A stretch of 64,000 bases of DNA from Octopus vulgaris (Eukaryota). Both the position numbers and the translations under genes were made by a program. Positions 1,131-62,546 of this stretch are shown here, in pieces. The notes under the pieces were generated by a model, which was given only the letters and a program-made list of their open reading frames with translations, made no database searches and was not told where the DNA came from. The stretch lies in contig OX597823.1 in assembly GCA_951406725.2 (NCBI GenBank), positions 24,552,001 through 24,616,000 on the forward strand. Direction: 5' to 3'. Within the stretch, counting starts at the first letter, position 1. Each line of letters opens with the position of its first letter.

Positions 1131-3190
1131 AATTTTAAATAGCTCGTTATATTTAGGTTCTCTCATGTTCTCAGATTTCACTTATAACCAGTAATAGTCA
1201 TCATGGCAATCCCTTCACCAGGGTATTGTTAATGAGGGAACATTAAAACTAGTGGAGAGGATATCAAGCTCCAAGTGTGGCCTGTTAGTAGGAAAGCATT
1301 TTCACACATTAAAATTAGCATATCGCATTCAGCTTTTGGTGAGGAGGACAAGAAGGTTCCACTCCCTTAGAAATTGGCCTACATCATGGATTGCATGTTC
1401 TGGTTTCCAAATAACCTTCATTACTGATGTGAGTGTGTGCTTGTGTGTGCATGTGTGCATATGCGTCTGTGTGTGTATGCAAATGATTCAGTTTTATTTA
1501 GTCAATAACTTTTACTCTAAATTTGTTACTATCTCCTCATTCTCCCTTTCCTCCTGTCATAAACTCAAAATTGATATGAATTTCTCTCATCACTTCCAGT
1601 TCACACAATGCTTGATTGTGGAGCACCAAAAGATGTTGCTGGTGCATCTAAATCCTATGATACTACTACCTATAATTCTGAAGTGATCTATACTTGTCAA
1701 GGTGGAGAAGAATTAAAAGCAAAATGTAGAGAGAACAAGAAATGGGCTCCAGTAGTGTCTTGTAAAGGTAATGTAAATAGGTTCTCTCTTTTTGACTCTA
1801 TCTCAGTAATTTTGTTTTAGCCTTGTGTTCAATTTCTATATCAGAGGAAGTCTGACTGTATCCATGAAAATGTCCATTGTTCGTGACTGGTAGGAGGGTC
1901 AGAGGTAGTTATCTTCAGACCAAAGACCTTCCTAAATGCTTGCAGCACAGTGGGCTTCATTAAAGATATTGAAGAGCCAGGTAATGTTATTAATTTGGTA
2001 GATGGGTTACGTCTATCAAACAAGAGCAGTATATGAGTAAGTGTGTTCTCTCCAGCAGGCTTCAGCATAGTTTCCATCCACCAAATTTCATTCAAAATCT
2101 TTACTCATGAAACAGATTTTTTACCATGCAGCTATAAGTCCAGAAAATACCACATTCTTGTTAAGTAAACTTGTTACATCCACAGCTCTATCTCAGCCAA
2201 CCTTGTTACTTTTTTCTTAAATTCTACCCTCAGCTGTCTCCCCACCTCCCCATACTTTGTTTCAATCTCTGATACTCTGTACAGTACAATTAACTGGATT
2301 TTTCTTTACAAGAATTCAACAATCATCCAAAACTTCTTATACTCTAATTGTCATCCATTCTACCATCTTAAATCACAATGAGACGAATAATAATAGTGGT
2401 TTCTGATGGAAAAAGAGGCAATACTTTTCCATAGAAAGTTGTCAGCATCATTACCTCCAGTACTTGGTTACTATTTTTTGTTGTTCACCCATCCCCACCC
2501 AGCTGGATTTGAACTGAAATTACAAAGTGTTTGAATCCATACCATAAATCATTTCTTTCAATTCTCTATTTAGTATTCATGTATTCATTTAAAATAAAGA
2601 TGAGAATGATGATGCAATTCTGATGAATGGAAAATTATCTTTATTTAAAGATAATTGCAGAACGCCACCATTAAAGACTACCATGAACTCCAAGGATACA
2701 TCTCCTCTCCAATTAATGTGCTTTAATTTTCCTGGAGTAGAATATCTTCCTCTCCATCCTCATCTTCTTTAAGGCTTTAAAAATACGGATTAGGGATTGA
2801 CTAAAGAGGAAAGTCCTCATTGTTATACCTTTCAGCCTCATCCACCACAAACCTCTTTTGCTATAGCTAGCAGACAGGGCTAAAGGGACTTCTCTGCTCA
2901 GTTAGAGGAGGATGTGAGGTAAACATAATGATGGACTTGAATGCCAGCAGGGCCTGTCTCATACATGATACCTGCTGTTTGACATAAACCTACAAGTCAA
3001 TAATGCCTGGACACTGACAGACATGTAAAATTAATTTGTTCCACCATGAACAGCACTGTCTGTTAGAACTTCTATGACTACATTTTATCTGGGTTTTGTA
3101 GAGCAATTTGATAACACTCTCAAGGGCTCCAAGAAGTTGCCCATAGTATTTCATGGCCAAAAAGTTCTTTGAAACAAATTTCCCACCTCA
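1033..3190 (+). repeat. Copy 1 of a recent segmental duplication (partner ~61834-64000, spacing ~60.8 kb)
   Basis: Aligned by eye from acttctgaagatgaaagtagagtgtgg to gttctttgaaacaaattt; near-identical over long stretches and includes exon S1. Confidence 0.92.
1600..1767 (+). CDS. Exon S1, short Sushi/CCP domain
   Basis: ttccag|TT...AAAG|gtaatg; (V)[56 protein letters not shown]-x2-P...Y-x-C...C...W...C pattern. Confidence 0.88.

Positions 3191-62546: not shown

Follow-up and report, generated by a model that had tools for sequence, protein, structure and literature searches.

A probable 348-exon gene of Octopus vulgaris predicted to encode a giant secreted chain of PAN and Sushi domains

What protein could be built from short exons that each encode a single Sushi or PAN domain, that are separated by introns with transposon remains and that run off both ends of the DNA in which they were noticed? 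This question is raised by the window, the whole stretch of 64,000 nucleotides of O. vulgaris DNA analysed here (1..64000, + strand; OX597823.1, hereafter C10, positions 24,552,001-24,616,000). An earlier note had ascribed its exons to a lineage-restricted, very long and multivalent protein, secreted or at the cell surface, that arose by exon-module amplification. The window holds module exons 236-249 of a total of 343, in the middle of a probable giant gene, and contains approximately one 61-kb, 13-exon super-repeat unit of it.

Exons of the window

The 14 exons lie on the + strand, all where the earlier note had placed them, in the order S-A-B-S-S-A-B-S-A-B-S-A-B-S (Sushi, S; PAN-A, A; PAN-B, B). 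They are 168-240 nt long, in phase 1-1, flanked by AG and GT and free of stops (0 stops in 14/14), and together make up 4.5% of the window (2,910 nt). The series opens with a Sushi/CCP-like exon (1600..1767; 168 nt, phase 1-1; 19.3 bits, under the Pfam cut-off), a PAN-A exon (5039..5278; 240 nt, phase 1-1; PAN_1 E 6e-11), a PAN-B exon (8679..8912; 234 nt, phase 1-1; PAN_1 E 2.5e-8) and another Sushi/CCP-like exon (13008..13178; 171 nt; 18.8 bits, under the cut-off), which is followed by a Sushi/CCP exon (21319..21489; 171 nt; 23.8 bits), the second member of the S-S pair characteristic of the super-repeat. Three further triplets complete the window: a PAN-A exon (24559..24798; 240 nt; over the PAN_1 cut-off), a PAN-B exon with a weak match to an apple domain of Toxoplasma MIC4 (27966..28199; 234 nt; E 1.6e-4) and a Sushi/CCP exon (32265..32435; 171 nt; 22.9 bits); PAN-A (37715..37954; 240 nt) and PAN-B (38313..38546; 234 nt) exons, both over the PAN_1 cut-off, and a Sushi/CCP exon (50505..50675; 171 nt; 23.4 bits); and PAN-A (53657..53890; 234 nt) and PAN-B (59621..59854; 234 nt) exons, again over the PAN_1 cut-off, with a last Sushi/CCP-like exon (62379..62546; 168 nt; 19.3 bits, under the cut-off) that repeats the exon at 1600 in the next unit. 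Positions 1033-3185 and 61834-64000 are 88.7% identical, introns included.

In a Pfam run, the domain types proposed for these exons stood in full for PAN, with all 8 A and B exons over the PAN_1 cut-off of 21.4 bits (27.1-45.5 bits), and in part for Sushi, whose cut-off of 20.7 bits is exceeded by 3/6 S exons (22.9-23.8 bits) and narrowly missed by the remaining 3/6 (18.8-19.3 bits). The transposon content attributed to the introns is present as retroelement remains, with an RVT_1 match in 2 of the 8 long intronic ORFs examined and a weak Mos1 HTH match in 1 of the 8. Among 22 sequencing runs listed, 7 contain part of the stretch, none of them recorded as RNA.

The probable giant gene and its short neighbour

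The 2.8-Gb genome was searched with one exon of each type as query (two for B). Of 110 matches to the A query, 107 are in one region of C10 (150 of 159 candidates scored); the S query has 134 of 134 in the same region, and the two B queries have 105 of 113 and 106 of 108. Every module match in C10 falls on the + strand in the interval 23.27-24.98 Mb, so the array does continue past both ends of the window; profiles made from 315 database domains recovered the same 347 matches and none on the minus strand. Phase-1 AG/GT ends are at the expected positions in 346 of the 347. An A match at C10:24,195,917, a decayed partial copy without splice sites, was dropped, and the first A-B-S triplet (23.27-23.28 Mb) was rejected as part of the giant gene, because it is followed by four GON exons and a stop of its own.

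This triplet, which has a short hydrophobic exon 5 kb upstream of it, belongs to a short paralogue (about C10:23,269,851-23,294,200, + strand; leader-A-B-S-GON, 455 aa). The single homologue of this leader (71%, E 2.7e-35) lies 2.2 kb upstream of the first A exon of the giant gene, and both leader exons end in a phase-1 GTAAGT donor. Leader DNA, GON exon 1 and GON exon 3 have exactly 2 matches each in the whole genome, in the giant gene and in the short paralogue, which argues for two genes, a short one and a giant one directly behind it; beyond these, the Pfam GON model finds genome-wide only a separate locus on C1 and, weakly, another on C17.

Extension into the neighbouring DNA thus gave the giant gene a leader-like start and a GON C-terminus. 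It begins with a hydrophobic exon of 18 codons (C10:23,362,495-23,362,549, +), putatively a signal peptide, and continues with the first PAN-A exon (starting at C10:23,364,742, +) up to the last PAN-B exon (about C10:24,982,9xx-24,983,1xx, +) and four GON exons (C10:24,990,060-331, 24,994,551-727, 24,997,435-576 and 25,002,974-25,003,050, the last with the stop; +). In all there are 348 exons (1 leader-like, 105 PAN-A, 105 PAN-B, 133 Sushi and 4 GON) on one strand over 1,640,556 bp (~1.64 Mb), with introns between module exons of 3,992 nt in the median and 19,355 nt at most. The 343 module exons all have phase-1 AG/GT ends, a length divisible by 3 and no stop, including a B exon shortened to 201 nt that keeps the frame, and they form 73 ABS, 27 ABSS, 3 AB and 2 ABSSS modules. 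When joined in silico, the 348 exons read as one frame of 73,035 nt with a single terminal stop. The GON assignment rests on the giant gene's own GON exon, which is over the PF08685 cut-off and 86% identical to the O. bimaculoides GON, and on this orthologue, which matches PF08685 with E 6.3e-33 over positions 1-191 of 199. In the 45% of the span that was read base by base no fourth recurring exon type was found (329 of the 343 known exons being recovered as control), and among 46 other exon candidates the recurring ones were LINE-like pieces only; divergent leaders or terminal exons could sit in the other 55%. A single leader at one end, a single GON domain at the other and, between them, 343 symmetric exons whose interleaved order is conserved are most simply read as one secreted chain, and the 348 exons very probably form one gene.

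Public annotations of three Octopus species split the array into fragments with misleading names, which would explain why such a gene stayed hidden. The O. vulgaris models CAI9728790, 92, 93, 95 and 96, automatically named SVEP1-like, ADAMTS20-like or hypothetical, match at ~100% but cover pieces only and skip many A exons. LOC128248841 of O. bimaculoides corresponds to exons 142-198 one-to-one and in order (57/57 domains, mean 84%) and LOC106869402 runs from the last modules into GON, while LOC128248838 and LOC106869390 are out of order, within recently expanded regions. In O. sinensis, where models match at 91-100% overall, LOC118764742 covers 36 consecutive exons at 99.7%. Models of both species bridge a junction at which the O. 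vulgaris annotation breaks, and by sequence comparison the array is collinear, module by module, in the two. Complete S-A-B repeats occur in Octopus proteins only (8/8 top matches, assigned by name or, in one case, by mapping, among the best 150 of 685 representatives), in agreement with the proposed lineage restriction. Full-text literature searches, with most subscription papers outside their reach, turned up no account of such a gene.

The short paralogue probably has a protein counterpart. Group 1238 of the O. vulgaris posterior salivary gland proteome has 480 aa, 54.687 kDa and 18 unique peptides; its intensity/iBAQ is 25, and an ADAMTS9-like match covers 41.6% of the protein (PMC7693380). 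Read from an upstream in-frame ATG, the short paralogue would have 479 aa and a mass of 54.628 kDa. Trypsin would release 25 peptides of 7-30 aa from it, or 29 if those of 6 aa are included, and a GON domain of ~200 aa would make up 42% of its length; by size, peptide count and GON share it is likely to be group 1238. This match, close though indirect, suggests that a secretory gland splices and translates the exon types of the family, including the A exon with its weak donor, but it says nothing direct of the giant protein. The giant protein itself, searched by accessions and short repeat motifs, has no entry among the salivary-gland proteome rows listed, from which the two LOC-id prefixes of the O. 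bimaculoides giant models are also absent (PMC7693380), nor among the listed entries of the skin mucus proteome supplement (0 matches; PMC10138644), nor in the ink proteome supplement (0 matches; PMC10142993). Blanks of this kind weigh little, as such searches depend on the proteome databases used. Logan-derived spliced proteins of the giant are likewise absent from the homologue matches and cluster members listed, which is weak evidence.

Growth, constraint and descent of the array

The mean A+B identity between modules peaks at offsets of 4, 8 and 12 (0.62, 0.58 and 0.57, vs ~0.51-0.55 elsewhere), nearest-neighbour exons are most often 13, 26 or 39 exons apart, and copies of the window's intron blocks are found at about 60 kb on either side, mostly with 76-91% identity. 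The window is therefore taken as one unit of a 13-exon super-repeat, and the array appears to have grown by tandem duplication of this ~61-kb block. The reiterated [Sushi-PAN-PAN]n architecture recognised in the window is borne out as a repeat, although its natural unit is PAN-A, PAN-B, Sushi(-Sushi) within the super-repeat.

No two peptides of same-type exons are identical (maximum 98.7%; mean identity 58% for S, 58% for A and 46% for B). For disjoint closest copies, dN/dS is 0.79 in S (66 pairs), 0.85 in A (52) and 0.87 in B (52), with bootstrap intervals below 1 for the three types and dN > dS in 64 of 170 pairs. In a neutral simulation with 10% substitution a mean of 110 of 343 exons remained stop-free (maximum 123 in 40 runs), whereas none of the 343 real exons has a stop, with closest copies at a synonymous divergence of ~0.2; the intact exon array is thus not a product of chance. 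A per-site test, which is crude and does not consider gene conversion, classed 42 of 212 sites as constrained and 5 as elevated, the latter (pN > pS after correction) being 4 in Sushi and 1 in PAN-A. From these comparisons, frames, cysteines and splice sites appear to be strictly kept while surfaces drift. The idea of a diversified recognition cassette finds little backing in dN/dS values below 1 and in exons that are interleaved instead of clustered as alternatives, and the loose surface constraint (dN/dS 0.79-0.87; 84% orthologue identity, 86% for GON) would suit a bulk or spacer role no less than a specific lectin.

The origin of the giant gene can be traced because a short paralogue adjoins it and small molluscan PAN-Sushi-GON relatives exist. 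These relatives, of 290-460 aa vs 105 modules in the giant, include CAE1175485 of cuttlefish (B-S-S-GON, 41% identical, where the giant has A-B-S repeats and then GON), GON-Sep-2 of cuttlefish (R4FJA6; leader-S-GON), reportedly tied by Ruder et al. in 2013 to venom-gland transcriptomes, and the small PAN-Sushi/EGF-like-GON proteins LOTGIDRAFT_153184 of Lottia and LOC124263275 of Haliotis. Molluscan PAN-(EGF)-Sushi-GON proteins share with the giant a signal-like N-terminus, PAN and/or Sushi domains, a C-terminal GON and the lack of a protease, and the octopus 455-aa paralogue has exactly their plan. By sequence, the giant is best placed within this group by descent. Tandem duplication of A-B-S in a short leader-A-B-S-GON gene, followed by duplication of a four-module block, would have led to it, the predicted protein being ~54x as long as the short paralogue.

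A predicted filament and its alternatives

The predicted protein has 24,344 aa, 2.744 MDa and a pI of 8.94, in support of the very long, multivalent, modular product of exon-module amplification that had been proposed. Without the leader it contains 13.9% Lys, 4.0% Pro, ~1,390 Cys and 272 N-glycosylation sequons, with a net charge of about +1,000, and it has 3 furin-like (RxK/RR) sites, no RGD motif and no membrane segment (maximum 19-residue hydropathy 1.38). Of the proposed locations, secretion is in line with the leader-like exon, while a surface protein is unlikely because of the missing transmembrane segment. PAN-A domains are basic, at a net charge of +7.4 each; PAN-B domains are neutral and have 1.3 sequons each. 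The core C-x3-C-x5-C-x10/11-C is present in 105/105 A and 104/105 B exons (one with an extra Cys), the remaining B exon having x4 spacing. Counting the paralogue, 106/106 A and 105/106 B exons have 4 Cys; this is the four-Cys PAN type, lacking the extra outer disulfide of the classic apple domain (factor XI type), which has 6 Cys. In the database model P0005, 36 stretches are over the PF00024 cut-off. Sushi exons have exactly 4 Cys in 132/134 cases and the conserved Trp in at least 95%, with a whole-protein PF00084 match of E 1e-43; they start 5 residues before the first Cys and end 1 residue past the last, with variable junction residues. Best matches in the ESM Atlas (0.88 and 0.86) are in a molluscan PAN/Sushi cluster, which is a lead. 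Among solved structures PAN-B matches best, although weakly, apicomplexan apple domains, those of MIC4 and also of the Sarcocystis microneme antigen L2, and PAN-A is weaker still (E 0.46).

Several known systems resemble parts of this architecture. Titin has 363 exons, with single-domain exons in super-repeats, and the giant gene likewise has hundreds of them (348 coding exons), but titin is an intracellular Ig/Fn3 protein with a kinase, whereas the giant is disulfide-rich and sequon-rich with a leader-like exon. Dumpy of Drosophila, made of EGF-DPY repeats with a membrane anchor, is also a giant modular extracellular protein with repeated exon modules. It has been given as 2.5 MDa with a ZP domain (PMC7266619), vs 2.74 MDa predicted for the giant, which differs in its PAN-PAN-Sushi repeats, in a C-terminal GON followed by the stop and in lacking both ZP and membrane segment. 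SVEP1/polydom shares many Sushi domains with the giant, where vWA, EGF and pentraxin are absent (Pfam, models P0006 and P0007), and ADAMTS9/20 and GON-1 share the C-terminal GON, without their metalloprotease and TSP1 (Pfam, model P0003). Models compared with SVEP1 tile with A, B and S only, and P0008 tiles as A/B/S and then GON with one 37-aa gap; the database names SVEP1 and ADAMTS reflect partial similarity of fragments and, as in the earlier note, no named gene of this architecture was recognised. Apicomplexan MIC4, Sarcocystis antigen L2 and Eimeria MIC5 have tandem PAN/apple domains, for which lectin activity is known in MIC4 and antigen L2; the giant also has PAN pairs, but the similarity is distant, and the octopus domains, each with 4 Cys, are interspersed with Sushi. 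In Dscam-type mutually exclusive arrays same-type exons are clustered, while here they are interleaved, and gel-forming mucins have PTS regions and VWD/CK, while the frame of the giant consists of leader, A, B, S and GON only.

No catalytic, ZP or VWD segment was found in the frame and, in the absence of a membrane segment too, the work of the protein must come from its length and multivalency. Apple domains and the basic four-Cys HGF N-domain bind glycans or heparin, and the basic PAN-A, together with the likeness of PAN-B to apicomplexan apple domains, suggests a polycationic filament that would cross-link acidic glycoconjugates. The exons would be spliced mostly constitutively into an mRNA of ~73 kb, and the chain, at a span of ~3.5 nm for each domain, would be a string of beads of ~1 micrometre, in which PAN-A and PAN-B may bind sulfated or sialylated glycans by avidity and Sushi domains may act as spacers, located in a gland secretion or in the extracellular matrix. 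In ADAMTS9/GON-1 the GON domain is needed for ER-to-Golgi transport (PMC3338439). By analogy alone, GON may aid ER export here, a role that would suit a very large cargo. That a full-length or near-full isoform is made is probable; that a single 348-exon gene yields a ~24,344-aa, long, positively charged secreted filament likely to cross-link acidic glycans is favoured by a small degree; and cross-linking of glycans, taken as a role by itself, is a tentative proposal, somewhat less likely than its opposite.

The main rival, unlikely but to be taken seriously, is that the same gene is mostly read with exons or modules skipped, giving many shorter isoforms from leader to GON and a combinatorial binding repertoire. 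Such skipping would be well tolerated, as all module exons are symmetric (phase 1-1) and a stop is created at just 51 of 58,653 possible skip junctions, and 98 of the 105 PAN-A exons have a weak donor (G at -1 in 7/105), A exons being those left out in O. vulgaris models; the five elevated sites of the crude per-site test also point this way. On the other hand, A-B-S exons are interleaved and same-type alternatives are not clustered, order and super-repeat are conserved between species, and RefSeq models of two species, which are predictions, cross 57 and 36 consecutive exons without skipping. The weak type of donor is also found on the A exon of the short paralogue.

Cleavage of a giant precursor after secretion into ~100 A-B-S units, a polyprotein route to variant small proteins, is improbable. 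The repeated unit is that of the short paralogue and, with so much lysine, trypsin-like proteases could cut the chain, but there are just 3 RxK/RR sites in 24,000 residues, no dedicated linker joins the modules, whose junction residues vary, and a single GON domain would serve all units. The same low probability is given to the arrangement that annotations imply, a tandem series of several shorter genes whose individual first and last exons escaped recognition; despite at least 5 separate O. vulgaris models, several LOCs in O. bimaculoides and O. sinensis and a base-by-base reading of 45% of the span, leader-like DNA and GON exons occur twice only genome-wide, no leader stands at the start of any of the 15 models mapped, model breakpoints vary by species, and the duplicated blocks of the window hold internal exons only. 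An assembly artefact or dead repeat array, conceivable because large tandem arrays can be mis-assembled and one A copy (C10:24,195,917) is decayed, is largely refuted by the lack of identical same-type peptides, by collinearity in assemblies of two other species, by 343 intact exons against ~110 expected after 10% neutral change, and by 0 N in 992,033 bases read, window included.

A single secreted filament remains the preferred reading. The fuller account, in which a small salivary PAN-PAN-Sushi-GON gene gave rise to a 348-exon gene for an intact, 2.7-MDa, micrometre-scale chain that cross-links glycans as a new type of biomaterial, was overlooked by all annotations compared and is heavier than Dumpy, has about an even chance. 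To our knowledge this protein would possibly be the largest secreted animal protein. If it is one chain, it would be a secreted protein at the scale of titin and Dumpy with an architecture that had not been described. It would raise the questions of how 1.64 Mb are transcribed, how ~347 introns with weak donors are spliced, how 2.7 MDa are exported, which would be a direct test of the ER-export role proposed for GON, and what secretion or matrix of the octopus relies on the protein. The locus would also be a clean case in which nested duplication of exon blocks made a giant gene out of a 455-aa neighbour, and its orthologous modules can be compared.

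Splice donors and irregular module copies

Over all 105 PAN-A exons of the giant gene, the splice donor is of a conserved, weak type, with C or T at position -1 followed by GTAATT (exon ends 5278, 24798 and 53890 are examples in the window). G occupies position -1 in 7 of the 105 PAN-A donors, in 132 of the 133 Sushi donors and in 101 of the 105 PAN-B donors. This weak donor may explain the skipping of PAN-A exons in the O. vulgaris models, or it may be a mark of regulated skipping.

A single broken module copy was found in the array, a decayed partial PAN-A at C10:24,195,917-24,196,054 (locus L106; C10 is contig OX597823.1), which has no splice sites and is followed 1.7 kb further on by an intact PAN-A exon. 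The PAN-B exon at C10:24,093,506-24,093,706 (L097) is short, 201 nt, and its frame is intact with all 4 of 4 cysteines present. In the window, a 1.2-kb segment that includes a PAN-B exon (58715-59936) shares 97% identity with a copy 64.9 kb upstream, most of the neighbouring blocks showing 76-91%, and it is possible that this segment underwent recent gene conversion.

Retroelement remains in the window introns

The 12-kb intron between a PAN-B and a Sushi exon contains LINE retrotransposon remains on the forward strand (40245-41069 and 41883-44788; RVT_1, endonuclease-RT). An open frame of 529 codons (16859-18445, forward strand) and a set of broken frames (46210-47921, reverse strand) gave no Pfam matches at E 0.001; by eye, both look like candidate pieces of retroelement reverse transcriptase.

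The short paralogue and other PAN or GON sequences

The short paralogue (C10:23,269,851-23,294,200; L021 and L011-L013) encodes 455 aa arranged as leader-PAN-PAN-Sushi-GON. It is likely the 480-aa GON-type protein from a proteome of the posterior salivary gland of O. vulgaris; the match is an indirect one, made on length and mass, on the number of peptides and on the share of the protein taken up by GON. The 68-kb spacer from its stop to the leader-like exon of the giant gene (C10:23,295,000-23,362,000) contains no module exons, and neither a promoter nor a non-coding first exon was located.

Further GON-like exons lie at C1:49.33 Mb (L176-L178), a locus that may be the ADAMTS9/GON-1 orthologue, and at C17:55.65 Mb (L179). 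Weaker PAN-like exon matches occur on C13 (19.92-19.98 and 76.17 Mb, with one A-B pair on this contig), C17 (45.99 and 62.71 Mb), C18 (43.14-43.22 Mb) and C6 (48.62 Mb), and may represent proteins of the leader-PAN-PAN(-WSC) type, of which LOC106869731 of O. bimaculoides is an example. In the annelid Dimorphilus gyrociliatus, two proteins of 1,964 and 3,398 aa (P0036 and P0044) carry PAN in long runs, without Sushi matches in the domain tiling, and PAN amplification in this species was possibly independent.
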